Assembly: GCA_035380245.1 (NCBI GenBank)
Contig: DAOSXA010000002.1
Location: forward strand, 268,625-332,624
Source: Candidatus Zixiibacteriota bacterium
GTDB lineage: Bacteria > Zixibacteria > MSB-5A5 > GN15 > FEB-12
DNA: 64,000 nucleotides
Reading direction: 5' to 3'
Shown here: piece after piece, positions 1,675-60,828 of the stretch
How the letters are laid out: each line of letters begins with the position of its first letter
Numbering within the stretch: position 1 is the first letter of the stretch
Translations under genes and position numbers: made by a program
Notes under the pieces: generated by a model
Told to the model about the DNA's origin: nothing
Database searches by the model: none
The model's input: only the letters and a program-made list of their open reading frames with translations

Positions 1675-1701
1675 TGATTGGATTCCTGCCGGGGCACGGC
1701 C

Positions 1702-2378: not shown

Positions 2379-2466
2379 TTTATAAGACCGTTTTACCCTT
2401 GCGGTTAGACTTCACTAGAATAAAAACGAGTGAATGGGATTGGGCAAGAAAAAACTAGCGGGACAA

Positions 2467-4494: not shown

Positions 4495-4549
4495 ATGGGG
4501 AAACTACCGCAGGAAAGGCCTTGAAGCCAGAAAAAAAGGGTAAAAGCCG

Positions 4550-6502: not shown

Positions 6503-6599
6503 CTATTGTTTCGTTCCCCTGTCGCCACTGATTTGCTGTCAGTGATCTACCCCAAAACAGCATCGAAGGTATTTCGACACTATTCCTTGAACAAATAAA

Positions 6600-6614
6600 G
6601 CAAAGATTGTGCCG
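6600..6614 (-). promoter_or_regulatory. Sigma54 (-24/-12) promoter upstream of the OM beta-barrel/TPR gene
   Basis: Minus-strand sequence is cGGCAC-aatct-TTGCt. GG and GC elements have exact consensus spacing (TGGCAC-N5-TTGCW). It lies about 98 nt upstream of the ATG at 6502, in a 339-nt AT-rich gap. Confidence 0.6.
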
Positions 6615-37710: not shown

Positions 37711-37732
37711 ACAAACCTCCGCTTTACCTATA

Positions 37733-37748
37733 GCGAAGACTGTGCCAA
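37733..37748 (-). promoter_or_regulatory. Sigma54 promoter of the flgF-...-fliW operon
   Basis: Minus strand reads tTTGGCAC-agtct-TCGCtATAGG with exact -24/-12 spacing. The predicted TSS is about 12 nt before the ATG and includes GGAGG. Confidence 0.7.
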
Positions 37749-37879
37749 ACGCTGGATCGCACAGCTAAGCGGCTGATATGCAGGACTTTACGCAACCGCC
37801 CGACAAGTCCGAAGGGACTCGGAACGGAAACATGATCGGTGCTTACCCGGAAAATTTTATCTAGCTGAGTGTCACGACA

Positions 37880-38092
37880 TTAGTCTTGTGGCAGACCATA
37901 CTTGGCGAGTGTTTTATTAATCAGTCGATCCATTGCCTCGTTAAAACGTTCTTCATCAAAATAGGTACCGGTTGTTTTTTGATAAAGCGGGCAATCGGTT
38001 TTATAACCGAAACACTTCAATTCTTCGGCCATGTAGCAAGCCTTGAGATAGGCACAGCGGACTAGTTTGCGGGAAGTTTGATTGGTATTCAT
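37880..38092 (-). CDS. 70-aa four-cysteine protein of unknown function
   Basis: ORF MNTNQTSRKLVRCAYLKACYMAEELKCFGYKTDCPLYQ..., with cysteine spacing C-x5-C-x7-C-x6-C and a helical acidic/basic C-terminal half. No obvious SD. Lies between two flagellar operons. Confidence 0.4.
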   Translation of the reverse strand: MNTNQTSRKLVRCAYLKACYMAEELKCFGYKTDCPLYQKTTGTYFDEERFNEAMDRLINKTLAKYGLPQD

Positions 38093-38226
38093 AGACTGTC
38101 AGTCGGCACAATTCGGGTAAACTTGAATCGCCGCTCAATCTTTGAACAGAGACGTCTCTGCAGTGTATACCATACATGTGAAGCGGCTTGCAGGAGCACG
38201 GAAACAAGCAAGAAACCGGTTGCCAG

Positions 38227-38251
38227 ATCGGCGCCGAGCAGCTATATTTGA
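38227..38251 (-). promoter_or_regulatory. Sigma28-like promoter upstream of the 70-aa Cys4 ORF
   Basis: Minus strand reads TCAA-N15-GCCGATCT. This predicts a leader of about 130 nt. Confidence 0.4.
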
Positions 38252-38368
38252 AATGCTTGAAGATATAGACTGACAGTTACTTACAGCGTACACACTTAGC
38301 AGCGACGAAATTTCACAGATGTAGCACTGTTTTTGCTTGACCAGAGATCAAAGCAAAGGGAAAAGCAT

Positions 38369-39127
38369 ATGACCAAGTGCGTTAGACTAGTTACCACCAT
38401 TCTGGCTTTATTCGTTATTTGTTGCGGGAGTTCAGCCCTGGCTCAAGGAACTGATCCCGGCACACCTGACACACTCAGGATCGAATCGATTACCGCCTAT
38501 CAGGGTTCTCCGGCTGAAGTGCCCGTTTATTTCTATAACGATGAGAATCTGGGCGGTGTCGAGATAACCCTGGAATTCAATTCATCCGACATTTACATCG
38601 ATTCCGTATCGTTTGTCGGTAGTCGTGTCGAGACCATGTCGTCGACCGGCTACACCGCCGGCGGCACTACGGTTACATTCTACGTGATTGGATTCTCCGA
38701 TGTTATCGAACCGGGCTCGGGACTTCTGGCCACCCTGCACTGCGGTTACCCCTCCACTATCACGCCTCAGATCGTTTCCTTCGACACCACTACGATCATT
38801 TCGGGAGACGTAGAATACTCAACGACTTTTTCCGATGAATTGGCTCAGTATTACATCCCCGAGTTCGTGTCCGGACAGATCGACATTCAAGAATCAGGCT
38901 GTTGTATTGGCGATCGCGGGAATATCAACAATAGTGAAGACGACGTTCTGGACATATCCGATGTTGTTTACCTGGTCAATTATATGTTTCAACAGGGGCC
39001 TGCCCCGGTTTGTATGGATGAAGCCAACGTCAACGGCAGTGAATTACCGGAGCCTGATATTTCCGACCTCGTTTATCTTGCGTCTTATATGTTCAACCAG
39101 GGACCGCCGCCGGTGCCTTGTCATTAG
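38369..39127 (+). CDS. Secreted protein with a cohesin-like N-domain and two dockerin-like C-terminal repeats
   Basis: This is the only plus-strand gene. Signal peptide MTKCVRLVTTILALFVICCGSSALA-QG. Cohesin-like beta segment (LRIESITAYQGSPAEVPVYFYNDENLGGVEITLEFN). Tandem repeats GDRGNINNSEDDVLDISDVVYLVNYMFQQGPAP and EANVNGSELPEPDISDLVYLASYMFNQGPPP. I prefer the ATG at 38369 over the track's TTG at 38333. Confidence 0.65.
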   Translation: MTKCVRLVTTILALFVICCGSSALAQGTDPGTPDTLRIESITAYQGSPAEVPVYFYNDENLGGVEITLEFNSSDIYIDSVSFVGSRVETMSSTGYTAGGTTVTFYVIGFSDVIEPGSGLLATLHCGYPSTITPQIVSFDTTTIISGDVEYSTTFSDELAQYYIPEFVSGQIDIQESGCCIGDRGNINNSEDDVLDISDVVYLVNYMFQQGPAPVCMDEANVNGSELPEPDISDLVYLASYMFNQGPPPVPCH

Positions 39128-39155
39128 TACCGACTGTCGCAGACAACAAATACAT

Positions 39156-39185
39156 GAAACGGCTCGTCACAAGACGAGCCGTTTC
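39156..39185. terminator. Bidirectional hairpin terminator between convergent genes
   Basis: GAAACGGCTCGTC-acaa-GACGAGCCGTTTC, a 13-bp perfect stem lying between the plus-gene stop (39127) and the fliJ stop (39216). Confidence 0.7.
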
Positions 39186-39215
39186 TATTGTGGGAATAGG
39201 ACTGGGTCAGAGAAC

Positions 39216-44655: not shown

Positions 44656-44979
44656 TTAGGCCTTTACGTCAATCCAGGCGCCTACACTATTGGAAGCGCC
44701 GGAATCATCGGCCGTCTCGGTCACAAAACGCTCATGCCCGCGGAATCGCGAGAAGAGCAAATCGAGCGCCTGGCGCTCTTCGACCGAAAGGAACTCATCA
44801 TAGGAACCTTTTTCAGCCTTTACAGCTATGCGAGAACTGCCGGTGGAGTCCGACGCATCGATCGCAACCTTGTCGGTCGTTTGCGTTGTCTCCGTTGCCG
44901 TCTGCTGCTGCTGGGCCGCCGGATTATCCCGGCGTATCAGTTCCTGGTAAGACTGAATGCCAAGAGGGTTGATCTTCAT
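44656..44979 (-). CDS. 107-aa unknown protein inserted between flgC and fliE (FlgM-like features)
   Basis: MKINPLGIQSYQEL..., then a Q/T-rich low-complexity stretch, DKVAIDAS, and RIAVKAEKGSYDEF. The start resembles the B. subtilis FlgM N-terminus, and the central motif resembles the FlgM (K/R)(I/V)A..K....G.Y pattern. Tight junctions: 18 nt after flgC and 2 nt before fliE. Confidence 0.5.
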   Translation of the reverse strand: MKINPLGIQSYQELIRRDNPAAQQQQTATETTQTTDKVAIDASDSTGSSRIAVKAEKGSYDEFLSVEERQALDLLFSRFRGHERFVTETADDSGASNSVGAWIDVKA

Positions 44980-45960: not shown

Positions 45961-45976
45961 TGCAAGGTCCGTGCCA
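45961..45976 (-). promoter_or_regulatory. Consensus sigma54 promoter of the flgB-...-fliJ operon
   Basis: Minus strand reads tTTGGCAC-ggacc-TTGCAATAGG, a full match to TGGCAC-N5-TTGCA. It lies about 40 nt upstream of the flgB ATG. Confidence 0.8.
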
Positions 45977-47673: not shown

Positions 47674-47699
47674 TTATCGGCAGGGCTTTAGCTTTTTGA
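47674..47699 (-). promoter_or_regulatory. Sigma28-type promoter of motAB
   Basis: Minus strand reads TCAA-N14-GCCGATAA, a perfect -10 element. It lies about 60 nt upstream of the motA ATG and just downstream of the terminator. Confidence 0.6.
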
Positions 47700-47747: not shown

Positions 47748-47771
47748 AAAAAACCCCGGACAAGCCGGGGT
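47748..47771 (-). terminator. Rho-independent terminator ending the che/two-component string
   Basis: Minus strand reads ACCCCGG-cuugu-CCGGGGU followed by UUUUUU, 26 nt after the EBP stop codon. Confidence 0.8.
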
Positions 47772-47797
47772 CGTTTTCTATGCGATGACCGCAACGG

Positions 47798-49153
47798 TCA
47801 TTTGAAGGCATCCTTCATATTATATTCCGCCAGTTTGTTGCGGATAGTGCGCGTAGTAATCCCGAGTGCTTCGGCCGCTCGTGTTTTGTTGCCGTTATAC
47901 TTCTCGAGCGTCTTGAGAATCAGATACTTACTGCCTTCTTCGAGCTTCATCGGCACTTTCAGGGCCGGAACGTCATCGGCAATCGGACCAAGCGCCAGAT
48001 CGGCCGGGAAGTCATCATCGGTTAACATGTTGGTTTTCGAGGTAACCACCGCCCGCTCCACCAGATTTTCCAGTTCGCGGACATTACCGGGCCAATGGTA
48101 ACTCATGAACAAACGCAGGGCATCCGGTTCGATTCCCCGAATCTCCTTGTCGTTCTCAGTGTTGTATTTATCGATGAAATGCTGTACCAGCAGCGGGATA
48201 TCCTCAGCTCGCTCTTCGAGCGGACAAAGATGGATCGGGATTACGTTCAGACGATAGAAAAGATCCTCACGGAATTTGCCCGCAGCGATATACTCTTTGA
48301 GGTTGCGATTGGAAGTGGCAATCAGGCGCACATCAACCTGGATCGTTTCACTCGAGCCAACCCGTTCGAACTCGCGCTCCTGAATAACGCGCAACAACTT
48401 GGATTGCAGATTCAAGGGCATCTCGGAGATTTCATCGAGCAACAATGTCCCGCCGTCGGCCAGTTCAAAACGACCTCGACGCGTCTTCTTGGCATCGGTA
48501 AAAGCTCCCTTTTCAAATCCGAAAAGCTCTGCCTCAACCAGATTCTCCGGCAAAGCGGCACAGTTAAGCTTGATAAAGGGTGCTTCGGACCGATTGGAGG
48601 TCTGGTGAATCGCCCGTGCCACCAATTCCTTTCCGGTACCGGAAGGACCGGTAATCATAACCGTCGAGCGAGCCGAGGCAACCGATTCGATCAGGTCAAA
48701 CACCTCTTTCATCACTTTTGACTTACCGACGATATTCTGATACTTGGAAGCTAAATCACGACGCAACGAGGCATTTTCCGAGCGGAGAGTGAGTGTCTCG
48801 GTGATGCGATTCATCATATTTTCGAGCGGCTCGGGCATAACCGGCTTGAGCAGGAAATCATACGCCCCAAGCTTGATTGCCCTGACTGCGGTCTCGATCG
48901 TTCCGAACGCGGTCATCATAACCACGGCCGTTTCGGGAGAACGCTCCTTGATTGCCTCAATCACCTCCAGACCGTCCATTCCATCCATTTTATAGTCAGT
49001 CAGGACTATGTCCGTCGGGCGTTGTTCGAACTCCTCAATGGCCTCTTCCCCGGAATAGACACCGCGACAGTCGTAATCTGCCCGCTGCAGCGTTTCGATG
49101 AGGAAGTCATGCACCAGCCTGTCGTCGTCTACCACCAACACTGAGTATTTCAT
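47798..49153 (-). CDS. Sigma54-dependent response regulator (REC + AAA+ + Fis-type HTH), FlgR/FlrC-like
   Basis: 451 aa. Receiver (VLVVDDD...VLTDYKMDGMDG...LLKP). Walker A GPSGTGKE, sigma54-contact loop GAFTDA, C-terminal HTH (RAAEALGITTRTIRNKL). Confidence 0.9.
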   Translation of the reverse strand: MKYSVLVVDDDRLVHDFLIETLQRADYDCRGVYSGEEAIEEFEQRPTDIVLTDYKMDGMDGLEVIEAIKERSPETAVVMMTAFGTIETAVRAIKLGAYDFLLKPVMPEPLENMMNRITETLTLRSENASLRRDLASKYQNIVGKSKVMKEVFDLIESVASARSTVMITGPSGTGKELVARAIHQTSNRSEAPFIKLNCAALPENLVEAELFGFEKGAFTDAKKTRRGRFELADGGTLLLDEISEMPLNLQSKLLRVIQEREFERVGSSETIQVDVRLIATSNRNLKEYIAAGKFREDLFYRLNVIPIHLCPLEERAEDIPLLVQHFIDKYNTENDKEIRGIEPDALRLFMSYHWPGNVRELENLVERAVVTSKTNMLTDDDFPADLALGPIADDVPALKVPMKLEEGSKYLILKTLEKYNGNKTRAAEALGITTRTIRNKLAEYNMKDAFK

Positions 49154-50487
49154 TTAGTTTGCTCCATGCTTACTGAATCGCATCGGGCCGGCAGCAACAG
49201 GTGAAAAGCTGCCCCTCCCAACGGTCCGTCGTCGACAAAAACCTCGCCTCCATGAGCTTTGACAACTTTCCAGACAACGGCCAATCCCAGGCCGTTGCCG
49301 CCTTTTCTAATCGAGAAAAAGGGCGAGAATACTCGCTCCCGGTATTCGCGTTTTATTCCCGGGCCGGAATCGTGAACAATCACCTCGACTACGGTTTCGT
49401 CGTTGTCAAGCAGCAGCCGCTCACCTAGCTCACGGCGTGCTTCGATCACCGACCAGCGTTTGACTTCCAGACCCACAACGCCTTCCCCTTTGATCGCCTG
49501 GACTGCGTTTTGAAGAAGATTAATCACAGCCTGCTTGATCAGAATGGGATCAAATTGCAACGACAACGACTCATTATTAACTGAACGATCGACCTCAAAA
49601 CTGACATCACCGATTTTCCCTCGATTTTCAGCGGTATACCGATCAACCGTATCCACCAGGAATTTTCGCATATCGAGGTAAGTCTTATTAATTTCTTCGA
49701 AACGTGTATAATTTAAAAGGGTCGACACCGTTTTATTCAGTGTCTCTACCCCCTTCACTATCTTGGTCGCGGTTTTGTGACGGCTATCCTCCTCATCCAG
49801 ATCCCGCTGGAGCAACGCCGCAAATCCGGCTATCCCGTTTAGAGGATTGCGGACCTCATGGGCAATCGTGGCCGCCATTTCACCCAGCGCCGCCAGGGTA
49901 TTCAGGCGCGCCAGCTCACTCTCCATTCGCTTTACCCGAGTCAGGTCGTGAAGGACCTCAACCGCACCCGACAACTGACCCTCAGCATCACGCATGAGAG
50001 TCGTTGAAACCGATAGATGCACCGACCGACCGTTCGTCAGCACCACCTGCCGCTCGACAGAATCTACCGTCTCACCCGTTTCAGTTGCTCGTAAGGCGCT
50101 GGCTTTGGGGGCATTTCCCAGGGGAATAGTCTTGCGGTATGACTTCCCCAGCACTGCCGCCTGTCCTATTTGCAGAATCGCAGCCGCGGCCGGATTAAAA
50201 TGAGTGATACAACCGTCACGATCAACTGCGATCACACCGGCCGACAACGAGTTAAGAATTCCATTCAGAAACTCCGTGGCAACCAGGTTGCGCTCGCTCA
50301 ATTCCACCAGGCGTTGATTAGCGCGTGCCAACTGCTCGTTTTGAGCACTAAACTCATCCTTGAGTTCAATATACTGACGCTGGAGTGAGTTGATTACTCG
50401 ATTGAAAGCAGCATAGGAATCTGTAAAACGGGAAATATCTTCCGTGTTCTCGGGGCGTGTTAACGTTACTTTTTTTGTGTTGTCCAT
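49150..50487 (-). CDS. Cytoplasmic coiled-coil/PAS sensor histidine kinase, FlgS/FlrB-like
   Basis: 445 aa with no TM segment. PAS-like region (GVIAVDRDGCITHFNPAAAAIL), H-box TIAHEVRNPLNGI, and HATPase (DSGPGI...GNGLGLAVV). Overlaps the EBP start by 4 nt. Confidence 0.85.
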   Translation of the reverse strand: MDNTKKVTLTRPENTEDISRFTDSYAAFNRVINSLQRQYIELKDEFSAQNEQLARANQRLVELSERNLVATEFLNGILNSLSAGVIAVDRDGCITHFNPAAAAILQIGQAAVLGKSYRKTIPLGNAPKASALRATETGETVDSVERQVVLTNGRSVHLSVSTTLMRDAEGQLSGAVEVLHDLTRVKRMESELARLNTLAALGEMAATIAHEVRNPLNGIAGFAALLQRDLDEEDSRHKTATKIVKGVETLNKTVSTLLNYTRFEEINKTYLDMRKFLVDTVDRYTAENRGKIGDVSFEVDRSVNNESLSLQFDPILIKQAVINLLQNAVQAIKGEGVVGLEVKRWSVIEARRELGERLLLDNDETVVEVIVHDSGPGIKREYRERVFSPFFSIRKGGNGLGLAVVWKVVKAHGGEVFVDDGPLGGAAFHLLLPARCDSVSMEQTK

Positions 50488-50555
50488 CTACCTTCCCAAC
50501 CTCTTATCAGGGGGCACGAAGCGCACTTATGGGAAAGCAATCAACAAAAACTTGA

Positions 50556-51674
50556 TCAGAAGTAAGAGAGTAATTCGTCCGCGATCTCATCAATGGGAAC
50601 AATATGATCAGCTAGACCGGCGTTGATCGCCGCTTTTGGCATGCCATAAACCACGCAGGTAGCCTCGTTTTGTGCTATTACGATGCCTCCCTTGTTTTTG
50701 ACATCCTTAAGACCATCCAGACCATTACTCCCCATTCCGGTCAGGATAGCGGCCATCGTAAACTTACCGTAGCGCTCGGCTACCGACTTTAAGGTATTGT
50801 CAATACATGGCTTATAGATCGCTGATGGCGGATAATCGCTGACTACTACATGTTGCCCCGTACTGGAGCGTGCCAGCGCCATCTGCTTACCACCGGGTGC
50901 TATCAGGACTGTTCCCGGACTTACCGGATCGCCGCTGATTGCCAGCCGAACCGTTACCTTTGAAACCCGGTCCAACCGATCAGCCAGCGGCTGAGAAAAA
51001 GCAGCCGGCATGTGTTGAACGACAATTACTCCCACCGGAAGATTCCGCGGCAACCGGGCAATCACGGCTTCCAGAGCTGGCGGGCCACCGGTAGATGCGC
51101 CAATAACTATCACGTTGATATGATGATAGCGGTGCTGGTGTCTCCTGCGAGGTTTCCATTCCGGCGCTGCCGCTTGTCCTGAAATCAGTTTTGCCGACTC
51201 GTCGTGTGCTTTCTTCAATTGCAGTATCTGACGACTGCGATACATTGCCATCAGGAGGCTTTTACGACGGCCGATATCCTTAATTTTGGCCAGTAATTCA
51301 TCCTTAATTTTGACAATGTCAATGCTGACAAACGACTGCCCTTTAGCAATATAGTCTATTGCCCCCATCGCCAGGGCATCCAGGGTGGCGCCGGCGCCTT
51401 CCGTAGTCATGGAAGAAACCATTAATACCGGAGTAGGATTGTGTTGCATGATTTGTCGAAGAGCGGCGATACCGTCCATGCGTGGCATCTCCACATCCAT
51501 CGTGACCAGGTCAGGCTTCAGACGTTTGGTTTTCTCCACTGCCTCTTCCCCGTCACGGGCCGTGCCGATCACCTTAATCGCCGGATCGGATTCCAGCATT
51601 ATCGTTAAGGCCTTCCGCATGAAAGCGGAGTCATCGACTACGAGAACACTTACTTGTCCGGCTGTTTGTTGCAT
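50556..51674 (-). CDS. cheB: Chemotaxis response regulator protein-glutamate methylesterase CheB
   Basis: REC (VLVVDDSAFMR...TMDVEMPRMDG), a long basic linker, and the catalytic domain (VIGASTGGPPAL...QHMP...DGMP). I place the start at the ATG at 51674 (MQQTAGQ...). The track start at 51737 would overlap cheA by 59 nt. Confidence 0.9.
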   Translation of the reverse strand: MQQTAGQVSVLVVDDSAFMRKALTIMLESDPAIKVIGTARDGEEAVEKTKRLKPDLVTMDVEMPRMDGIAALRQIMQHNPTPVLMVSSMTTEGAGATLDALAMGAIDYIAKGQSFVSIDIVKIKDELLAKIKDIGRRKSLLMAMYRSRQILQLKKAHDESAKLISGQAAAPEWKPRRRHQHRYHHINVIVIGASTGGPPALEAVIARLPRNLPVGVIVVQHMPAAFSQPLADRLDRVSKVTVRLAISGDPVSPGTVLIAPGGKQMALARSSTGQHVVVSDYPPSAIYKPCIDNTLKSVAERYGKFTMAAILTGMGSNGLDGLKDVKNKGGIVIAQNEATCVVYGMPKAAINAGLADHIVPIDEIADELLSYF

Positions 51675-51678
51675 GTTT

Positions 51679-53415
51679 TCAGGCTGGAACGTGTGAGGTT
51701 TGCTTTTTAACGAGATTGAACAGCCCCACCAAATCAACGATCAAGCGAACTCGGCCATCCCCCATAATGGTGGCGCCGGTTATCCCGGAGTCATTCCCGA
51801 TGAGATCACCCATCGACTTGATTACGACCTCTTCCTGTCCCTGAAAGCGGTCTATCATAATTCCCATCTTTTTATCGGCTAATCCGACCACTACCACATA
51901 CGGCTTCTCAGTGAGTACGTTGTTTGAAGATACTTTGCCGTAAACCGAGGCGAGGTTGACAATCGGGATTACTTCATCGCGAAGCCTCAATACCGGTCGA
52001 CGGTTCATCTGGTGCACGGCGGATGCTTCCATCCGGATCGTTTCAATCACCGATGCCAGCGGCAATACATACACTTCCCCGTCAGTCTCCACCAGCAATC
52101 CCCTGATAATCGCCAGTGTCAGCGGCAGTTTTATTGTCATCGTGGTTCCCACGAACGGCTCTGACTGAAGCTCGATAATCCCGTTCAGCTTCTCGATATT
52201 GGTCCGCACCACATCCATCCCTACCCCTCGTCCGGATATCCCGGTGACGGCTCTGGCGGTAGAGAATCCCGCTTGAAACACGAAATCGAATACCTGTCGC
52301 TCGGTGAGTTTCTCCGACTCGATCGGATCGATCATACCGCGCTCTATCGCTTTCAGACGTACCGCCTCGTGATTTATCCCCCGCCCGTCATCTCGCACGG
52401 TCACGACGATGTTGGAACCTTCTTGTCGGGCATCGAGCCAGATATTCCCGACTTCGGATTTCCCATGCTTCAAGCGCATCTCGGGTGATTCGATACCATG
52501 ATCGCAGGCATTACGAATGACATGCATCAGCGGATCACTGATTTCCTCGATGACGGTTTTATCCAGCTCCGTCTCCTGTCCCGAGATATGAAGATCGATT
52601 TGCTTTCCGACTTCCCTTGAAAGGTCACGCACCTGGCGCGGGAAACGAGCGAATACCCGACCGATCGGCAACATACGCATCTTCATGACCGCCATCTGTA
52701 TTTCAGTAGTCAGGAAACTGACTGTGGTCGAGGCTTGCCCTACGGCTTCGAGACGATGTTGATTTGGCATCTCAACCGAAGCCTGTGAAACGCTCTGTAC
52801 CAGGCTGTTTCGTCCGAGAACCAGTTCTCCGATCAGGTTTATCAGATGATCCAGACGATCGACATCCACCCGTATGGTATGATCGGCAGATTTACTGCGC
52901 CCGGCTGTTTCTTCTTTCGACTGCCTGGCTTCTTCTACATCCGATTCGGATTGGACCGTTTCGGCAACTGCCGCGTCATTCGGTTCGACCGGATCGGGCT
53001 CCGATCTTTCGCTCTGGTAAATCGCATCCAGACGTTTCAGGATATTATCCTGGTCAGGAGGAGAAAGCGATTCGTCTCTTATCGAATCGAGCGTGACCTT
53101 AAGTAAATCAAGCCCTTCAAGCAGAGTATCCATTATTATGGGAGTAAGACTCAGGCTATGCTTGCGCAACCGATTCAGAACATCTTCCATTTTGTGGGTT
53201 AGCCCGGTAACGGCTTCAAGACCAAGAAAACTGGAAGTGCCTTTGATAGTATGAACTGCGCGGAATATCTCGTTAAGCAGATCGGGATTATCGGGTGATG
53301 CTTCGAGGTCAACGAACCTGCTGTCCAGCGTTTCGGCCAATTCATCCGCTTCGATCAGGAAATCACCGATAATTTCCTGCATTTGCTCCATGTCAAGATC
53401 GGTATTGTTTCCCAT
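51679..53415 (-). CDS. cheA: Chemotaxis histidine kinase CheA (P1-P3-P4-P5, no P2)
   Basis: 578 aa. Hpt domain with FRAVHTIKGTS, an acidic linker, a dimerisation region (IRVDVDRLDHLINLIGELV), HATPase (HVIRNACDHGIE...DDGRGI...GRGVGMDV) and a CheW-like C-terminus. Confidence 0.9.
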   Translation of the reverse strand: MGNNTDLDMEQMQEIIGDFLIEADELAETLDSRFVDLEASPDNPDLLNEIFRAVHTIKGTSSFLGLEAVTGLTHKMEDVLNRLRKHSLSLTPIIMDTLLEGLDLLKVTLDSIRDESLSPPDQDNILKRLDAIYQSERSEPDPVEPNDAAVAETVQSESDVEEARQSKEETAGRSKSADHTIRVDVDRLDHLINLIGELVLGRNSLVQSVSQASVEMPNQHRLEAVGQASTTVSFLTTEIQMAVMKMRMLPIGRVFARFPRQVRDLSREVGKQIDLHISGQETELDKTVIEEISDPLMHVIRNACDHGIESPEMRLKHGKSEVGNIWLDARQEGSNIVVTVRDDGRGINHEAVRLKAIERGMIDPIESEKLTERQVFDFVFQAGFSTARAVTGISGRGVGMDVVRTNIEKLNGIIELQSEPFVGTTMTIKLPLTLAIIRGLLVETDGEVYVLPLASVIETIRMEASAVHQMNRRPVLRLRDEVIPIVNLASVYGKVSSNNVLTEKPYVVVVGLADKKMGIMIDRFQGQEEVVIKSMGDLIGNDSGITGATIMGDGRVRLIVDLVGLFNLVKKQTSHVPA

Positions 53416-53433
53416 ACGCCCGCTGTCCCGGCG

Positions 53434-54027
53434 CTACGATTCGTCCTTGGGTGAGAACAGGTTGTCGATATCCTCCTGTGCGGTGCGCTTGGTCACCAGA
53501 TCGGCATTGGGATCGAACACTCGTTCGCGGTGGCGATCATTATCCTCACCCTGGTCATCGTAACCCTGCATCACCGTTAGAATACGGCGCAACTTGTTCT
53601 CGATATCTTCAAGCAACCAGGCGGCATGGTTCATTTGTTGAGCGGTAATATCCTGAAACTGGAGGTTGTCGACCAACGTGTAAGTATCATCGAGATTATG
53701 ATTGGCATGTTCGATGAGTCTGTCAATCAGATCTCGGAAATGGGTCATATCTTTTCCTTCGATCTGTGGTCTCAAATGACTTAGCCCATCGATCGTAGCC
53801 TCTTCGCGTGCTTGAATCTGTTCGATCATATCCAACATTCGCTGGGTCGCGGCTTCCGTCTGTTCGTTGATCTTGTCCAGTTGTCTGGTTGCTTTGGGGA
53901 CTTTGGCCTGACTTTCAGCCAACGGTCGCTGGATATCACGAAACTGACCAACCACGTTGTTAATCGACTTGGCCAGTTCGAACACCTCGTTTTGTATCTG
54001 GTTCTGCAGATTACTGGAATCCGACAT
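53434..54027 (-). CDS. cheZ: CheZ-like CheY-P phosphatase
   Basis: 197 aa, helical. The motif LQFQDITAQQMNH matches the CheZ catalytic FQDLTGQ region. The acidic C-terminal tail EDIDNLF resembles the CheY-binding peptide. Confidence 0.6.
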   Translation of the reverse strand: MSDSSNLQNQIQNEVFELAKSINNVVGQFRDIQRPLAESQAKVPKATRQLDKINEQTEAATQRMLDMIEQIQAREEATIDGLSHLRPQIEGKDMTHFRDLIDRLIEHANHNLDDTYTLVDNLQFQDITAQQMNHAAWLLEDIENKLRRILTVMQGYDDQGEDNDRHRERVFDPNADLVTKRTAQEDIDNLFSPKDES

Positions 54028-54053
54028 CTTTATCTCCTTACCTGCCCTAAGCC

Positions 54054-54431
54054 TCAGTCGGCCAGGATCTGCTCTATTTTTTGTTTCAGGGTATCCGGCG
54101 TGAACGGTTTTACGATATAGTTGTTCACTCCGGCTTTCAGGGCCTGCACGATGTCATCCTTGACCGAACGCGTCGTCACCATCAGGATCGGCAAGGTTTT
54201 ATACTCTTCGGTTGCACGAAGCGTATGAACAAAAGTCAGGCCGTCCATTTCCGGCATATTCCAGTCGGTAATAATAAAATCGTAATTATCTATCTTCATC
54301 TTGGCCAGGGCATCCTTGCCGTCGGTGGCTTCTTTGATATCGTTGTAGCCGGCTCGTCTGAGCGTGTTGATAATTATGCGCCGCATCGTCGGGCTGTCAT
54401 CCACGGCTAGTATTTTTATATCGTGCACCAT
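54054..54431 (-). CDS. cheY: Chemotaxis response regulator CheY
   Basis: 125 aa. ILAVDDSPTMRRI...ITDWNMPEMDG...MVTT...VKPFT is the classical CheY pattern. Confidence 0.9.
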   Translation of the reverse strand: MVHDIKILAVDDSPTMRRIIINTLRRAGYNDIKEATDGKDALAKMKIDNYDFIITDWNMPEMDGLTFVHTLRATEEYKTLPILMVTTRSVKDDIVQALKAGVNNYIVKPFTPDTLKQKIEQILAD

Positions 54432-54436
54432 ACCTC

Positions 54437-54856
54437 CTATTGTGCTTCATCTGCCTGCTTCAGGAATTTGGACACTTCCTCCAGGAGCAACGAGCTCTTG
54501 AATGGTTTGACCAGATAAGATGTCGCTCCGACTTCCATGCCGCGATCGATATCCGAGTCCTCGGATTCCGAACTGAGAATGATAATCGGTGTTTCCCGAT
54601 GCATTTCATTGGCGCGAAGAGTGGAGATTAGGCCGTAGCCGTCAAGGTTCGGCATATTGAGATCGGTTATGACGAGATCAACCCGCCCCCCCTGATTCGA
54701 GAGCTTCTCGACCGCATCCATTCCATCACAGGCAGTGATAACCTCGTACCCACTTTGTTTGAGCGAAAACGCTACGAACTTCACCAAAGTAGGAGAGTCA
54801 TCGACAATCATGATTGTCTGTGACATCGCATTTCGTCCTGTATCTGCGTTGTTCAT
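54437..54856 (-). CDS. Stand-alone receiver (CheY-like) protein
   Basis: 139 aa. IMIVDDSPT...VITDLNMPNLDG...ILSS...LVKPF. All phospho-acceptor pocket residues are present. Confidence 0.85.
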   Translation of the reverse strand: MNNADTGRNAMSQTIMIVDDSPTLVKFVAFSLKQSGYEVITACDGMDAVEKLSNQGGRVDLVITDLNMPNLDGYGLISTLRANEMHRETPIIILSSESEDSDIDRGMEVGATSYLVKPFKSSLLLEEVSKFLKQADEAQ

Positions 54857-55845
54857 TTTGTTCCTGCTGTTACCGGCTTGACTTTACTCAAGAGGTCCAA
54901 GGCGCGAGAGGCTCCGCTGGTTGTCCCGATCGAGGTTGTCGTATTCATGCCTCTCAAACCATTGGAACGATTTTCGACCTTCAGGTTTTCTTTGTGGTAA
55001 ACCAACGAGTTTTTCAGATAGACCAGCTTGAATGCCTTCGTCAAACCGTGTAAGGTCTCCGAATGGCCTATATAGAAATGACCGCCGGGGCGTAATGAAT
55101 TGTAAAAGCCTCTGACGATTTGACTTTTCATCTGATCCGAGAAATAGATCATCACATTCCGACAGAAGATAATATCGATATCGGAATGCCTGGCAACCTG
55201 ACGCTGGTCGGCGAGATTGATATGCGAGAATCTGACCATCGAGCGCACCTCGGGCTTGATCAGATACACTTCACTGTTTTCCTTGCGAGTGAAATGCTTT
55301 GCCAACACATTGGGCTTGACATAACGTAAAGTCTGACCGGTATATTCCCCCACTCGGGCTTTCTTGAGAACCTGTTCGGAAATATCATTGGCAATTATTT
55401 CGAACTGCAGGTTGTTCCTGGGGCCGAGTTTGTCCAGAATAAGCATCGCCAGCGTATATGGTTCTTCACCCGTAGAACAACCGGCCGACCATATTTTAAT
55501 CGGTCGCTTAAAGCGACTACCTTCAGCTTGTTTTACCAATTGCGGCAGCAGCTCTTCTGAGAACGAGCGAAGTTGGGGTTCGTTACGGAAGAAATAGGTC
55601 TCGTTGGTCGTCACCAAATTGATCAACTGACCGAACTCGGTATTAGACGAGTCATACTTAACGGCGTAGAAATAATCACGATAAGTCTTGATATTCAACT
55701 CGGACATACGCGTGATCAAACGGTTCTTGAGCAAATACATTTTGCTCTCGGCGAAATAGATGCCGCACCGCTGATGAATGAAATCGCGAATCATCACGAA
55801 TTCTTCCGGCGTCATATCCGGGGTCATATCGGGATTATTCAGCAT
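54853..55845 (-). CDS. cheR: Chemotaxis protein methyltransferase CheR (with ~50-aa C-terminal extension)
   Basis: 330 aa. FVMIRDFIHQRCGIYF...TNETYFFRNEPQ...IWSAGCSTGEEPYTLAM. It ends in an S/T/G-rich tail. Confidence 0.9.
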   Translation of the reverse strand: MLNNPDMTPDMTPEEFVMIRDFIHQRCGIYFAESKMYLLKNRLITRMSELNIKTYRDYFYAVKYDSSNTEFGQLINLVTTNETYFFRNEPQLRSFSEELLPQLVKQAEGSRFKRPIKIWSAGCSTGEEPYTLAMLILDKLGPRNNLQFEIIANDISEQVLKKARVGEYTGQTLRYVKPNVLAKHFTRKENSEVYLIKPEVRSMVRFSHINLADQRQVARHSDIDIIFCRNVMIYFSDQMKSQIVRGFYNSLRPGGHFYIGHSETLHGLTKAFKLVYLKNSLVYHKENLKVENRSNGLRGMNTTTSIGTTSGASRALDLLSKVKPVTAGTK

Positions 55846-55914
55846 TGCCGTTACTCCGCAACATTTCCCTGCAATCTGTCTTAAAGACCGTCATTACGTA
55901 TCCCAACACTCCTG

Positions 55915-56361
55915 TCAATCAACTCTAAGATCATCCCCGACCGGATGACGTGATACCGACGGATTAATCGTACGCTGATAACGCCGCACTCCGCGCTGAA
56001 CAGCTCCAATCAATTCCTGGAGATCGAATGGTTTTGTTAATAGATCACATGCTCCATGACGCATCGCTTCCACTACCCCATCCAGAGTCGGACAACCTGA
56101 AAGAAGGATAACCGATGACTCCGGGCAGTATTCCTGTAAGCGGACAAGGAGCTCAGTATTGCTCATCCCCGGAAGGTCGACATCGATCATTATGACCGAC
56201 CAGCCGTCGGTAGCCGTCCGTTCGAGCACATGCCCGCAATTGGCAGCCGTCTCGGCATGATAACCGGACTCGATCAAAGCCTCGAGTACATTATCGCAGA
56301 CCTCAGGATTGGCGTCAGCCACCAGAATGCGATCGGCTTCTGTGATATTGTTGCTTTTCAC
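55915..56361 (-). CDS. Stand-alone receiver protein (variant acidic pocket)
   Basis: 148 aa. ILVADANPE (AD in place of DD), IMIDVDLPGMS, LLSG, LTKPF, plus a ~25-aa tail. Confidence 0.75.
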   Translation of the reverse strand: MKSNNITEADRILVADANPEVCDNVLEALIESGYHAETAANCGHVLERTATDGWSVIMIDVDLPGMSNTELLVRLQEYCPESSVILLSGCPTLDGVVEAMRHGACDLLTKPFDLQELIGAVQRGVRRYQRTINPSVSRHPVGDDLRVD

Positions 56362-56744
56362 TGCTGCGGTACGTCCTTGTCAATATGCGATTTAATGATC
56401 CTGAACAGCTCATTGATATTGAACGGCTTGGTAACATAATCAGAGATCTTGCTTCGTAACGCGGCAACGGCCGACTCCACCGATGGAAATCCCGTCATGA
56501 TAACCACCGGCATGTCCGGATGCTCTTCTCGAACCAGACGAGCCAGATCAAGTCCGTCCATTTGAGGCATTCTGAGATCGGTCAAAACCAGATCTATTTC
56601 CTTTTCCTTGAGTATCCCGAGCGCTTTCTCTCCGGTGTCGGCAATGGCGATTTGCCAACCCTGTCCCGCGAAGAAATCGTAAAGCAGATCGCGGATCAGA
56701 AGCTCATCGTCCACCACCAGAATCGAGGGTTGCTCGTGCATCAT
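56358..56744 (-). CDS. Stand-alone receiver protein
   Basis: 128 aa. ILVVDDELLIRD...VLTDLRMPQMDG...IMTG...VTKPF. Confidence 0.85.
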   Translation of the reverse strand: MMHEQPSILVVDDELLIRDLLYDFFAGQGWQIAIADTGEKALGILKEKEIDLVLTDLRMPQMDGLDLARLVREEHPDMPVVIMTGFPSVESAVAALRSKISDYVTKPFNINELFRIIKSHIDKDVPQQ

Positions 56745-58678
56745 CGTCCTCCTAGTTCCGCGAGGGCCAGTTCGGCTGCCTGCGCCACATCCTTGTTCTT
56801 ATCGCTGGTCATGTCCTGTATCTGGAGACGATACTCGGCGGCCGTCATGGCAGCCAGCGCCTTGACCGCTGCTATACGCAGGACATCTTCTCGAACTGAA
56901 AGCATGGGAGCGATTAAATCGGCATACTCCCGTTGACCCAGTTCACCGATACAATTCACGGTGTGATACCGGACCCAGATGTCGTCATCATCCAGCATGA
57001 AACGGATATCAGGAACAGCCGCCGTACCTTTGATAGAGATCAAGGCTGAAACGGCGGCCTTGCGGACGGATGAATCCTCGTCCGAAAGCGACACCAGGAG
57101 GGGTTTTTCATCGATAATCTGCCCGATACGACCCAGCGAGCGGATAGCCAGCTTACGCACGGTCGCATCAGGATGATTGAGAGCTTCCGAAAGCGGGGCC
57201 ACTACCGATGAATCGCCGATCATTCCTAAAGCCTTCACGGCCAGGCGCTGCCTCTCCAATCCGGCGCTATGTAATTCCTGGGTGAATCTATCTACCGCTT
57301 TCATGCCGCCGACGACTATTAGCGCCCCCATCACCGCCTCTCGCACGTCCGGGTACGGATCCGCGAGCCCTTCGAAAAGGAAATCAACGTCCTCTTCTCG
57401 ACAAAGCCAACCAAGAGCCGCATAGGCTGCTCGACGAACATGTCCGTTGTCGTCCCGAGTCATGCGACGCAGATGACCAACAGCCTCTTCCCATCCGGAG
57501 ATTCCCATAATATGAGCTATCCGCTGCTTGATACCCGGATTGTCGATATTGATATATTTAACCAATCCCCGGGCTACACCGGGATCGATATTCTGACGCA
57601 GGACATCCAGAATCAGCAGTTTCGTCTCGTCATCGGTGGTTTCAAACCGGTCGAGAAGACAACCGACCGCTATCGGTCCGGCATCTTCCAGGATATCCAT
57701 GATACGTCGTCGTTCCGTGTCGCCGACAACCGGCAGGACATCGACGAGCGAATAGAGTACATCCCGGCCGTACCAGTGCTTCAGACGCGTCAGCGTGAAA
57801 TCGGTAATCCTTTTATTGCCGGCGCGAATTCCCTCAAAGAGAAAATCCTTGAATCTATCCAACGGCAAATCGTAGTCGATACGGCCGCGGTTAGCCAGCG
57901 CTATATTGATCACTGACATCATAGCCGTCTCGGCAATGGTTCGGTCCCGGTTATCGAGAAACGGCATTAACCTCTCGATTGCAGCGACATTCCCGATATA
58001 CCCAATCGCCTCCAGGGCAGCGAAAACCACCATCGGATCATCAGCCTGCAAATGCTCATAGAGATGCTCCAGGGTTTGTTCACCTCCGCACTTCCCGAGC
58101 GCTTCGATCAACGGCAGGAGGGCATCATCGCCCCGACTCATAGCCGCCTGCAACGCAGGAACGGCCTCGGCATTGCCTATCTCACCGAGCGCCTCGGCCG
58201 CGGAGCAAACCACGTTGAGATTCTCATCATCGAGCATTCCACAAAGCGTCAGGACTGCTCGTGGATCCTTGATCATACCCAGCACATCAGCCACGAATTT
58301 CCGTACATCCGCATCGGCGTTCCGACACTCCTCCACCAGCGGTATGACGGCATCATCGCCGATTTTAACCAGGATCTCAGCCGCCAGATTGCGTGCCCCG
58401 ATTTCGTCATGACCAAGGAATCGGATGAGCAGCCGACAGGCCAGCTCCCCTTTCCTCTCGGTTAGCTGATGAGCCGCCAGTTCACGAATTCCAAGATCGG
58501 GATCTTCGATAGCCAGGACCAACCCGGCCACCGCTTCATCCTCACTGAAATTGCCCAGCTCACGCACGGCCTCCTCCCGCTCGTAGAAGTCGGGAGACTG
58601 CAACTGCGAAAGCAACTCGCTGATCTTATCAACGACCGTAGTTATCATCACTCGATAGCCCCGTTCCAGCCGGGACAT
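56741..58678 (-). CDS. HEAT-repeat (PBS-lyase-type) protein, 645 aa
   Basis: About 18 tandem ~30-aa repeats of the form D.D..VR..A..ALG.IG...A...L, for example EREEAVRELGNFSEDEAVAGLVLAIEDPDLGIRELAAHQL. No other domain is recognisable. Confidence 0.8.
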   Translation of the reverse strand: MSRLERGYRVMITTVVDKISELLSQLQSPDFYEREEAVRELGNFSEDEAVAGLVLAIEDPDLGIRELAAHQLTERKGELACRLLIRFLGHDEIGARNLAAEILVKIGDDAVIPLVEECRNADADVRKFVADVLGMIKDPRAVLTLCGMLDDENLNVVCSAAEALGEIGNAEAVPALQAAMSRGDDALLPLIEALGKCGGEQTLEHLYEHLQADDPMVVFAALEAIGYIGNVAAIERLMPFLDNRDRTIAETAMMSVINIALANRGRIDYDLPLDRFKDFLFEGIRAGNKRITDFTLTRLKHWYGRDVLYSLVDVLPVVGDTERRRIMDILEDAGPIAVGCLLDRFETTDDETKLLILDVLRQNIDPGVARGLVKYINIDNPGIKQRIAHIMGISGWEEAVGHLRRMTRDDNGHVRRAAYAALGWLCREEDVDFLFEGLADPYPDVREAVMGALIVVGGMKAVDRFTQELHSAGLERQRLAVKALGMIGDSSVVAPLSEALNHPDATVRKLAIRSLGRIGQIIDEKPLLVSLSDEDSSVRKAAVSALISIKGTAAVPDIRFMLDDDDIWVRYHTVNCIGELGQREYADLIAPMLSVREDVLRIAAVKALAAMTAAEYRLQIQDMTSDKNKDVAQAAELALAELGGR

Positions 58679-58684
58679 CTATCC

Positions 58685-59035
58685 CTAACCGGCCTGCACT
58701 GTTTGATATGAGTTGACCGCTTCTTCTTCGGTGTTGAAAATCTCGAAGATGTGCGACAACTGCGTTATATCAAAAATCTCCTGGACATAGGAAGCCAGAT
58801 CAGAGAGCGTCAACCGCCCTTTACGCAAACGGACTTCCTTCATGATCGATACAAGCGCCCCCAAACCGGAGCTGTTGATAAACTCCACCCGGGACAGGTT
58901 GAGATGGATCGAGGTTCGTTCTTTTTCGAACAGATTCTTGATCTCTTCTTTCAGCGTAGCACCACTGGCGAGGTCAAGACGACCACGTAGTTCCATGACA
59001 CTCACTTCACCGGATTCTTTGGTAACGATCTCCAT
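58685..59035 (-). CDS. STAS-domain anti-sigma-factor antagonist (RsbV/SpoIIAA-like)
   Basis: 116 aa. VMELRGRLDL....L...I....E......L.LS.VEFINSSGLGALV, including the conserved phosphorylatable Ser motif. Confidence 0.9.
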   Translation of the reverse strand: MEIVTKESGEVSVMELRGRLDLASGATLKEEIKNLFEKERTSIHLNLSRVEFINSSGLGALVSIMKEVRLRKGRLTLSDLASYVQEIFDITQLSHIFEIFNTEEEAVNSYQTVQAG

Positions 59036-59057
59036 TACATCCTCCGTCTCTCATCGT

Positions 59058-59495
59058 TTATTCGCATATTTCTTTCATTTTCTCACTTATATCCAAACTC
59101 ACCGATACAATGAGTCCGCCATGTTCAGCTTCGGCGAACTCAACGTTACTGGCACAATGGCATACGATATCGATCCCACGGCCTCCTTCGGACATCGAAT
59201 CGGCCTGTGGACGCCGTTGGATACGTTCAAGGCCGCCATGCCCTTGATCAATTATATCGGCCGTAATGCGCTCCTCATTAATAGCGAACCTGACTTCAAT
59301 CTTGCGATTTGCATCTGATTTGTTGCCGTGGATCACGGCATTGGTGAACACTTCCGAGACAATTAAGAGGAACCGCCGCGTAGTGGTATCGTCGACTCCG
59401 GCTGCCTCCAGGCGTTCGGTAAGAACCTGGACAAGCTCTCGCTCAGCTTCTAAAGTTGATGGATATGTGAATCGCTCTATCACGGAATCACTCAA
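59058..59495 (-). CDS. RsbW/SpoIIAB-like anti-sigma factor / serine protein kinase
   Basis: 145 aa. N-box VSEVFTNAVIHGN, G1 box DQGHG, G2 box GGRGIDIV. Confidence 0.85.
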   Translation of the reverse strand: MSDSVIERFTYPSTLEAERELVQVLTERLEAAGVDDTTTRRFLLIVSEVFTNAVIHGNKSDANRKIEVRFAINEERITADIIDQGHGGLERIQRRPQADSMSEGGRGIDIVCHCASNVEFAEAEHGGLIVSVSLDISEKMKEICE

Positions 59496-60828
59496 CCTTC
59501 GTCAACAGAATAGTGAAATCATCATGGCTGTCCTCCGTCGAGCCTTCCTGAAACTTATCAACCCATTCTTTAACTCTCAGGCAGAACTCCTTGGGCGCCA
59601 ACATGCCTTCGACTACGAATACTTGCTCCGCCCGCTCTCGGCCGAATAAATTGCCGTCGGAATCTTCAGCTTCAGTCAACCCATCGGTAAACAAGAAAAG
59701 CCTGTCACCCGGTCTGAGCGGCCTCCGTCCCTGGACAAATTTAAGCCCTTCAAACTGCCCCACGATCGGTCCCCCCTCGGCTAATTGCACCACTGTACGA
59801 TCCTGCGAATCCCAGAATAGGCCAGGCAAATGTCCGGCATTGCAAAAATCCAGATAGCCCTGTTCGAAATCGAACTTGGCAAAGAAAAGAGTCGCAAACA
59901 TTTCCCGCTCACGAACGATTTCTCGAACCAGCAGATCATTGAGGGTTGCCGCCAGATCCGAGACCGAGATGTCGGGACGGTGATATAGCGTCGACTTGAT
60001 AATACCCGAAGCGGCCGACATGATCAGAGCCGCCGGGACGCCTTTGTTTGAGACATCACCGATCACCACCAGGTACTGCCGCTCGGCGATCTTGATTACA
60101 TCGTAAAAATCACCACCGACTTCACGCGCCGGGAAATAGGCCGCTCCGATCTCCAGACCCGGTAACTTCTCGAATCCGCGCGGCAGAATCGTTTCTTGAA
60201 TTTGCCCGGCTATCGCCATTTCCTGCTTGATCTTCTGTTGCTTCAGGCGCTCTTTCATCAGCCGCGAATTATCGATTGCCACAGCTAAGAAATCTAGCAA
60301 CATCTCCAGGCCGGAGCGATCGGCAACGGTGAATCCACCCTCTCCTCTCTTGTTGATAATCATTATCACCCCCAGGGATGCTTTCTGGGTGCGGATGGGC
60401 AGACAAATAATCTCATTGATCCGGGTGCCGTTATCGTCGACGATCCCGACCTCGTTTAAAACCACTATCTCTTTATTGGCATGGCAATAAGTAGGAAGAT
60501 CCTGCTGATCGACATATTTGAGACTTCGGGCAAAAGTCTCATCGACCCCCCAGGCTACTTCCATGGTTAACTCCCCGTTCTTTTCGAGCATGATCAGGCC
60601 GACTTCACCCTGGACCAGACGAACCGCCATATCCATAACGAGAGGCAGGACGGTATTCAGATCGAGCACCGAAGTAATCGCGGCTCCCATCGTGGCCAGG
60701 TCGGCGAGTTGATTACGAGTGATTTCAAGTTCTCGTTCCAACTCGCGGCAGGTCACGGATGTATTGGTCGTAATTCCGTCCATATCGGTATTTATCGGCC
60801 GACCAGGCCGATTTCTTACCGATTTCAC
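59488..60828 (-). CDS. GAF-domain PP2C (SpoIIE/RsbU-type) serine phosphatase
   Basis: 446 aa. GAF-like N-terminal half (LNTVLPLVMDMAVRLVQGEVGLIML...). PP2C motifs GGDFYDV, IGDVSNKG and FTDGLTEA. Confidence 0.85.
   Translation of the reverse strand: MKSVRNRPGRPINTDMDGITTNTSVTCRELERELEITRNQLADLATMGAAITSVLDLNTVLPLVMDMAVRLVQGEVGLIMLEKNGELTMEVAWGVDETFARSLKYVDQQDLPTYCHANKEIVVLNEVGIVDDNGTRINEIICLPIRTQKASLGVIMIINKRGEGGFTVADRSGLEMLLDFLAVAIDNSRLMKERLKQQKIKQEMAIAGQIQETILPRGFEKLPGLEIGAAYFPAREVGGDFYDVIKIAERQYLVVIGDVSNKGVPAALIMSAASGIIKSTLYHRPDISVSDLAATLNDLLVREIVREREMFATLFFAKFDFEQGYLDFCNAGHLPGLFWDSQDRTVVQLAEGGPIVGQFEGLKFVQGRRPLRPGDRLFLFTDGLTEAEDSDGNLFGRERAEQVFVVEGMLAPKEFCLRVKEWVDKFQEGSTEDSHDDFTILLTKVE

Follow-up and report, generated by a model that had tools for sequence, protein, structure and literature searches.

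A string of 14 genes on the minus strand (47798-60828) of a 64,000-nt stretch of a Zixibacteria genome (Candidatus Zixiibacteriota bacterium, GenBank GCA_035380245.1, contig DAOSXA010000002.1, positions 268,625 to 332,624; the window) encodes a serine partner switch, a HEAT-repeat protein, stand-alone receivers (REC), a chemotaxis (Che) core and a histidine kinase/sigma54 activator pair. On a modest balance of the evidence, this string appears to be a motility-signalling supra-operon of flagellated Zixibacteria made of two parts. The first would be a fixed block of 11-12 genes, GAF-PP2C through CheB, with REC2 sometimes present; the second, the PAS kinase/sigma54 activator pair, usually follows, would have its own promoter and resembles FlgS/FlgR. 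The analysis established the composition of the string, its conservation, the intact catalytic motifs of its products and its probable transcription layout.

Relatives were taken as one genome per species, which gave 80 loci, essentially all from Zixibacteria metagenome-assembled genomes, and their open reading frames (ORFs) were identified by blastp comparison with the proteins of the window. Contigs identical to that of the window are present in ENA, JGI and Logan assemblies, and those homologues that carry a name come from candidate division Zixibacteria. Collinearity of the order PP2C-kinase-STAS-HEAT-REC1-(REC2)-CheR-REC3-CheY-CheZ-CheA-CheB holds in 78/80 loci and persists down to 30% identity of the HEAT protein, with CheR after the HEAT/REC genes in all loci. 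An earlier note, made from the letters of the window, had proposed a gene-neighbourhood search in which loss of this order would count against the string; the order is instead retained, and its recurrence in that many species-level genomes argues that the string is more than a product of chance. By this comparison the cluster is a real, phylum-wide unit. Median junctions are 29 nt for STAS-HEAT, -1 nt for HEAT-REC1 (77 loci) and 41-61 nt for REC-CheR.

Slow genome rearrangement could also have left a che operon, a partner switch with its HEAT gene and an FlgSR-like pair merely adjacent, with no signal passing between them. Consistent with this, synteny extends equally to the housekeeping genes der and DUF512 (45-55 loci), the whole 64-kb window is co-oriented, the kinase/activator pair can be separated and is preceded by a promoter-like motif of its own, and the window contains another, unrelated partner switch (see below). 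However, the PP2C-to-CheB block is intact where both flanks have changed: in the deep clades L064-L083 it stands without der, DUF512 or flagellar neighbours, and in L084 unrelated genes lie on both sides, supporting the view that the block relocates as one piece to new genomic surroundings. Moreover, genes on the two sides of a module border overlap or are very closely spaced (58-78 loci per junction), internal terminators are lacking and adjacency of HEAT and CheR recurs in another phylum. Mere adjacency is, in our judgement, rather unlikely, and functional linkage of the switch, HEAT protein, receivers and Che core is well supported by the comparative evidence. The single signalling unit envisaged in the earlier note is plausible for the first 12 genes, which comprise these modules, but does not extend to the sigma54 pair, which is semi-independent.

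Gene content of the string

The string consists of 14 consecutive minus-strand ORFs, as first described, and the 13 junctions recalculated from the coordinates were the same as before (-8, 22, 6, -4, -4, 69, -4, 5, 26, 18, 4, 68 and -4 nt). Pfam, run on the string proteins as the earlier note had advised, agrees with every domain call for all 14. NCBIfam models were applied to ten of the 14 for equivalog naming; none of the ten reached an equivalog-level name and only the STAS superfamily model TIGR00377 scored above its cut-off. In order of transcription the genes are:

59488..60783, minus strand: GAF-PP2C (SpoIIE-family) serine phosphatase, 431 aa (Pfam SpoIIE 147.6 bits, GAF 33.9 bits)
59058..59495, minus strand: RsbW/SpoIIAB-like serine kinase (HATPase_c_2, Pfam 70 bits)
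58685..59035, minus strand: STAS protein of anti-sigma-antagonist type (Pfam STAS 78.7 bits; TIGR00377 79.4 bits, above cut-off)
56741..58678, minus strand: HEAT/alpha-solenoid protein, 645 aa (HEAT_2 237 bits in 8 stretches)
56358..56744, minus strand: REC1, single-domain receiver of NtrC/AtoC type (Response_reg 104 bits); overlaps the HEAT stop codon
55915..56361, minus strand: REC2, divergent, dispensable receiver (Response_reg 63.7 bits)
54853..55845, minus strand: CheR methyltransferase (CheR 201 bits, CheR_N 53.7 bits)
54437..54856, minus strand: REC3, second CheY-like receiver (Response_reg 97 bits)
54054..54431, minus strand: CheY (CheY4), likely motor-binding response regulator (49% identity to E. 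coli CheY)
53434..54027, minus strand: CheZ phosphatase (Pfam CheZ 39.3 bits, cut-off 30.7 bits)
51679..53415, minus strand: CheA, P1-P3-P4-P5 (Hpt, H-kinase_dim, HATPase_c and CheW domains; HTIKG phospho-His motif)
50556..51674, minus strand: CheB methylesterase (CheB_methylest 207 bits, REC 84 bits); most likely start ATG 51674
49150..50487, minus strand: cytoplasmic PAS-HisKA-HATPase histidine kinase (Pfam; no hydrophobic segment)
47798..49153, minus strand: REC-AAA+(sigma54)-HTH_8 enhancer-binding protein (Sigma54_activat 245 bits)

The phosphatase ORF exists as reported, but GTG 60828 marks only the longest ORF; ATG 60783 is the most likely start because the resulting 431 aa match the length of orthologues (430 aa in ~120) and an identical 431-aa protein in public records. 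This start leaves 72 nt between der and the phosphatase gene. No membrane segments were detected in the eight string proteins checked (PP2C, RsbW, STAS, HEAT, CheZ, CheA, histidine kinase and enhancer-binding protein). Since all 58 supported genes of the window lie on the minus strand, co-orientation of the string carries no weight.

Partner-switch genes

The first three genes encode the components of a partner switch, namely a PP2C phosphatase, a serine kinase with N, G1 and G2 boxes and a STAS protein with a phosphorylatable Ser. In 71 kinase sequences the N-box residues E48/N52 and the G2 residues G105-R106-G107 are 100% conserved and the G1 residue D83 is 92% conserved, while median identity over the whole protein is 39%. 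The STAS motif FINSSGLG, which contains the phosphorylatable Ser, is 97-100% conserved (n=80 sequences) and the whole protein has a median identity of 71%; this far greater conservation of STAS than of the kinase suggests that STAS has further conserved partners. PP2C and the RsbW-like kinase are fused (578-602 aa) in six relatives (L055, L057, L061, L062, L078 and L085), and kinase and STAS form a single ORF (~276-298 aa) in three (L045, L046 and L048), fusions that fit the expectation for a working partner switch. In the deepest clade (L084, 7421-7807; L075, L076 and L080) one or two receiver genes lie directly upstream of GAF-PP2C, and L084 has no receiver 3′ of the HEAT gene. This placement suggests that a receiver functionally belongs with the phosphatase, and it echoes the REC-PP2C fusions of CrsR and RsbY.

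A second partner-switch operon was observed at 25-6614 (minus strand; L089) of the window. It comprises genes for a TPR protein (4550-6502), an RsbW-HAMP-PP2C fusion (2467-4494), a STAS protein (1989-2378) and a GGDEF cyclase (25-1674), with a sigma54-like site (CGGCACAATCTTTGCT, 6599-6614) upstream and polysaccharide export genes following beyond the window edge. The arrangement resembles biofilm switches of the HsbR-HsbA-HsbD or SiaABCD type.

HEAT protein

The AlphaFold model of the HEAT protein (pLDDT 91.5) is an unbroken solenoid of 38 helices with no other domain, and the protein is predicted to be a pure solenoid scaffold of 19 repeats. Its nearest folds are scaffold proteins (SF3B1, CAND1, PP2A-A and karyopherins), and its sequence matches in the PDB are alphaRep and CpcE. 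A role as substrate of CheR/CheB was considered and rejected, as no methylation consensus of the type found in methyl-accepting chemotaxis proteins (MCPs) is present in 14 homologues.

Nitrospirota carry a large family of HEAT homologues (~663 aa, about 30% identity over 92-97% of the length) in clusters with the order MCP-MCP-MCP-CheW-HEAT-CheR-CheB-GAF-REC. There, too, HEAT adjoins CheR, so the HEAT-CheR link is older than the Zixibacteria arrangement, and coexistence with receptors and CheW argues against the HEAT protein replacing them. PP2C, kinase and STAS genes were not found in these Nitrospirota HEAT clusters, where GAF is a separate protein, and neither CheZ nor CheY was seen in the cluster itself; in a single Nitrospirota locus (L087), two single-domain receivers and a CheA gene lie ~2-8 kb downstream. 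Searches for outgroup contexts with the phosphatase or the Nitrospirota HEAT protein as query returned, among the matches listed, within-phylum orthologues.

Chemotaxis core and stand-alone receivers

CheY is the most conserved protein of the cluster (median identity 78%), with D12, D13, D57, T87, Y106 and K109 all 100% conserved among 69 orthologues; its NCBIfam CheY score of 139 bits is under the 189-bit cut-off. In the CheZ motif FQDITxQQ only x (residue 129) varies; all other positions, the catalytic Asp and Gln among them, are 100% conserved (n=67). REC3 is closest to CheY4 and E. coli CheY (36-37%), with active-site residues 97-100% conserved. REC1, in which D12, D13, D56, T84 and K106 are conserved, has its closest relative within the window in the receiver of the sigma54 activator (36%), and is also close to AtoC/NtrC receivers. 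REC2 has Ala in place of D13 and is recognisable in only 17 loci (median identity 31%). As noted previously, CheA has no match to P2, and a 73-residue acidic, low-complexity linker lies between P1 and P3; absence of P2 is common in CheA and not a defining feature. The 4-nt gap between CheA and CheB presumes ATG 51674 as CheB start (the longest CheB ORF starts at TTG 51737). Of the CheB catalytic triad, Ser (GASTGG) and His (QHMP) are kept, and the window has Asn (TGMGSNGLDG) where the motif GMGxDG has the catalytic Asp. The Asn variant occurs in 38/59 Zixibacteria orthologues; deeper clades and Nitrospirota retain Asp.

These features bear on the possibility that the Che core serves an alternative function with the partner switch as its output (cf. 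Shewanella Che1/CrsRA), another Che system steering the flagellum. Partner-switch genes are typical of F7 stage 1-2 che clusters that coexist with a separate flagellar system (PMC7184735, PMC9855816), and the Asn in CheB, the two extra receivers and the lack of MCP or CheW in the locus would suit such a role. Less easily reconciled with it are a CheY that is 49% identical to that of E. coli and the most conserved protein of the cluster, a CheZ with an intact active site, and the motAB and flgB genes that follow in most genomes; a second che cluster did not turn up either, though no genome-wide search was made. This division of labour is considered decidedly improbable.

In one 8.8-kb contig (L010, CBDUZQ010000088.1) CheB directly follows REC2, with CheR through CheA missing, reflecting either natural loss of the Che core or an artefact of assembly.

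Receptors and CheW

The absence of MCP and stand-alone CheW reported in the earlier note holds for the 64-kb window, in which neither an MCP signalling domain nor a stand-alone CheW was identified by Pfam in any ORF of at least 100 aa, or an MCP or stand-alone CheW by tblastn with Nitrospirota MCP and CheW queries. It does not extend to a property of the genome, being a result for the locus only. Likewise, no MCP or CheW was found within 10 kb of the cluster in the genomes of the 80 relatives. As CheA keeps its P5 domain and CheR and CheB are conserved, receptors encoded elsewhere are the simplest reading, and MCP and CheW genes are likely present elsewhere in the genome. Dispersed MCP genes are the norm in bacteria.

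A receptor-independent Che core, in which CheA sits on the HEAT solenoid rather than in MCP/CheW arrays and is gated by the GAF-PP2C switch, would also be compatible with the lack of MCP and CheW in the window and in the 10-kb flanks of the cluster in 80 genomes, with the invariable presence of the HEAT gene and with a CheA lacking P2. However, conserved CheR, CheB and CheA P5 imply receptors, the HEAT homologue of Nitrospirota is found together with three MCPs and CheW, the HEAT protein lacks a methylation-site consensus and dispersed receptor genes are commonplace, making this explanation very improbable.

Kinase/activator pair and transcription layout

Elements that would delimit transcription units within and beyond the string are as follows:

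50541..50553, minus strand: AAGTTTTTGTTGA element in the CheB-kinase gap, probable -35 of an internal promoter; 48/55 loci
47752..47772, minus strand: intrinsic terminator closing the string, 8-bp stem with 6 GC pairs, then a T-run
47674..47681, minus strand: GCCGATAA, sigma28-type -10 element upstream of motA; CCGATAW 66 to 81 nt upstream of motA in 17/32 loci
45961..45976, minus strand: sigma54 promoter TGGCACGGACCTTGCA before flgB, zero mismatches to TGGCAC-N5-TTGCW
37732..37747, minus strand: sigma54 promoter TGGCACAGTCTTCGCT before flgF, one mismatch, 22 nt upstream of flgF

The kinase and activator genes overlap by 4 nt. The activator best matches AtoC among NCBIfam models and reaches no equivalog cut-off (FlgR 338 and FlbD 361 bits, cut-offs 750). 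Its sigma54-contact loop ELFGFEKGAFTDA is GAFTDA, not the canonical GAFTGA; GAFTDA is found in 37/49 orthologues, and the loop of other clades is GAFTGA, GAFTNA or GAFTSA. Consensus sigma54 promoters before flgB and flgF, pointed out in the earlier note, are present in the window as a perfect match and a match with one mismatch, respectively, and the flgB promoter is a likely target of the activator.

Under a strict rule requiring a hairpin plus a T-run, internal junctions contain zero terminators in any of the 17-78 loci available per junction. A terminator-like hairpin lies 3′ of the activator gene in 16/33 loci, and the terminator previously placed after this gene in the window (47748-47771) was recovered at 47752-47772. 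The sigma28-type element before motA indicates that a new transcription unit starts there. The CheB-kinase gap is conserved in length (median 69 nt), and a TAnnnT hexamer follows AAGTTTTTGTTGA by 16-18 nt in 29/48 loci. AAGTTTTTGTTGA is unique in the window, and its ~150 other matches in 2.6 Mb are not consistently placed relative to another gene. The earlier note had held that a split of the string into independently regulated units by internal promoters or terminators would count against it: the lack of internal terminators speaks for a unit and the promoter-like element before the kinase speaks, in part, against it. The best reading of the layout is a long operon without internal terminators, with an internal promoter that would allow separate expression of the kinase/activator pair, which by the comparison of loci is evolutionarily separable from the block.

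AAGTTTTTGTTGA is conserved far beyond an ordinary -35 region and could also be a regulator-binding site. A sigma28-type candidate for the block promoter, TAAGAAAT-N11-GCCGATAA (60792-60799), was rejected as it is not conserved in relatives and is part of a local hairpin (60792-60815, minus strand; ATCGGCC-TGGTC-GGCCGAT, 7-bp perfect stem), which lies 8 nt upstream of the phosphatase ATG and is itself not conserved.

Proposed mechanism and points against it

In the proposed supra-operon, CheA would take input from receptors and CheW encoded elsewhere and would phosphorylate CheY, for motor control with reset by CheZ, and CheB, for adaptation together with CheR. A second branch would pass via a stand-alone receiver, namely REC3 supplied by CheA, REC1 supplied by the PAS kinase, or both, and this receiver may dock on the HEAT solenoid in the way that CheY7 binds Cpc7. 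The HEAT protein would scaffold or regulate the PP2C/kinase/STAS switch, and the output would then depend on whether STAS is phosphorylated; a sigma/anti-sigma factor of late flagellar genes or the motile/sessile decision are candidates for this output. The kinase/activator pair is the probable activator of the sigma54 promoters that serve the flgB and flgF operons. In a more specific form, the switch, assembled on the HEAT protein and driven by a CheA- or kinase-fed receiver, would replace FlgM-type control of late (sigma28) flagellar genes; we regard this form as quite unlikely.

Several points weigh against the supra-operon. Synteny of der and DUF512 in most relatives implies that part of the conservation is inertia. 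The kinase/activator pair has its own conserved promoter-like motif (48/55 loci), and in five loci (L047, L059, L072, L074 and L079) the string ends at CheB with unrelated genes next; together these make the pair semi-independent. Alignments revealed no conserved promoter motif upstream of the phosphatase gene, and hence of the block, or upstream of cheR. A sigma factor gene was identified neither in the window, including the vicinity of the RsbW-like gene, nor in the flanking regions of relatives, and the 10 kb past the left window end contain polysaccharide export genes only, with no MCP or CheW. The change of the CheB catalytic Asp to Asn in most close relatives may have altered esterase activity. 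Finally, all phosphotransfer, binding and cross-module (CheA/partner switch/sigma54) links are inferred.

Neighbouring genes and other features of the window

On its 5′ side the string is bordered by a tRNA gene, a DUF512 radical-SAM gene and der. On its 3′ side it is followed by motAB, flgBC, fliE-J, flgF-L, csrA, fliW, flagellin, fliD and fliS genes and then housekeeping genes. Rfam matches in the window are limited to two tRNAs. No supported gene occupies the ~1.5 kb that separate the flgF promoter from fliJ (37711-39215); a plus-strand ORF here (38333-39127, 264 aa) has no family match and its start is overlapped by a sigma54-like site (38322-38337, plus strand). Two minus-strand ORFs within flagellar operons also lack a family match, one between flgC and fliE (44656-44979, 107 aa) and the other upstream of an HDOD gene (18888-19361, 157 aa).

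Implications

If the block is one unit, it would be a natural case of a single chemotaxis kinase core with two outputs, fast motor control and a slow serine-phosphorylation switch acting via the HEAT scaffold. Should the switch replace FlgM-type control, chemosensory activity would feed back directly on flagellar gene expression across the phylum. The cluster also draws attention to a large family of HEAT solenoids, as yet uncharacterised, whose genes lie beside that for CheR in two phyla or more (Zixibacteria and Nitrospirota) and for which the only functional hints come from Cpc7 and OE2401F. In practical terms, it provides a phylum-wide marker and a defined protein set for in vitro phosphotransfer and binding work; as the phylum is uncultured, functional work must use heterologous or biochemical systems.

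Comparison with known systems

The literature searched yielded no account of this combination or of chemotaxis genes in Zixibacteria; RBG-1, the first Zixibacteria genome, was reported as non-flagellated. The view that no described system has this exact combination therefore stands for the full set in the literature found, but each pairing has a precedent, and the cluster recombines modules already known from signalling and does not amount to a new kind of system.

F7 stage 1-2 systems are defined by the presence of partner-switch genes within the che cluster (PMC7184735). In Vibrio cholerae cluster III, Pseudomonas aeruginosa Che2 and Shewanella oneidensis Che1, as here, genes for a STAS protein and a serine phosphatase/anti-sigma kinase lie in the che cluster, and Che output has been proposed to feed the partner switch (PMC7184735, PMC9855816); the Shewanella CrsR/CrsA switch for RpoS belongs to such an F7-type cluster (PMC9855816). 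F7 stage 1-2 clusters carry MCPs (Aer2, McpA), CheW and CheD and are without CheZ, whereas the present locus has CheZ and none of the others. CrsR is a REC-PP2C-kinase fusion, in contrast to the GAF-phosphatase, separate kinase and stand-alone receivers seen here. The F7 stage 1-2 clusters are also proteobacterial, have no HEAT protein and leave control of the flagellum to a separate F6 system.

HsbA provides a link to FlgM in the Pseudomonas HptB-HsbR-HsbA system. In both this system and Bacillus cereus RsbK-RsbY-RsbM, His-Asp signalling feeds a PP2C/kinase/STAS switch affecting motility, and the B. cereus Rsb pathway includes a CheR-like methyltransferase (PMC12848376). In HsbR/RsbY-type systems the receiver is fused to the phosphatase and there is no CheA core and no HEAT protein, unlike the stand-alone receivers here.

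HEAT proteins also occur in other che contexts. In Myxococcus xanthus the HEAT protein Cpc7 is bound by CheY7 and the interaction is the pathway output (Darnell 2014, cited in PMC11514114). Che7/Cpc7 resembles the present cluster in having a HEAT-only protein encoded in a che cluster beside a single-domain receiver; Cpc7 has 27 helices (PMC11514114) compared with 38 here. Che7 controls development, not motility, and is not known to include a partner switch. Motor switching in Halobacterium salinarum requires the HEAT_PBS protein OE2401F, which interacts with Che proteins (PMC2666748). Like the HEAT protein here it is encoded in a che region (che/fla), but it is archaeal and much shorter, works with CheF and the archaellum and has no partner switch. 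The Nitrospirota che clusters found in this study have HEAT directly before CheR, with a GAF protein and a receiver after CheB, and differ from the Zixibacteria locus in having MCPs and CheW in the cluster.

Control of rod and hook genes by a soluble PAS kinase paired with a sigma54 activator is the paradigm set by FlgSR and FlrBC. FlgS/FlgR (Campylobacter, Helicobacter), FlrB/FlrC (Vibrio) and FleS/FleR (Pseudomonas) are, like the pair described here, a soluble PAS kinase and a sigma54 activator encoded beside flagellar genes, and sigma54 promoters of rod genes are common to FlgSR/FlrBC-type systems and this window (flgB, flgF). The present pair departs from the FlgR/FlbD models in its GAFTDA loop and in scoring below every NCBIfam equivalog cut-off, with AtoS/AtoC as best matches. 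Unlike FlgSR-type pairs, it remains linked to the che block in a locus that lacks neighbouring flagellar genes (L084).

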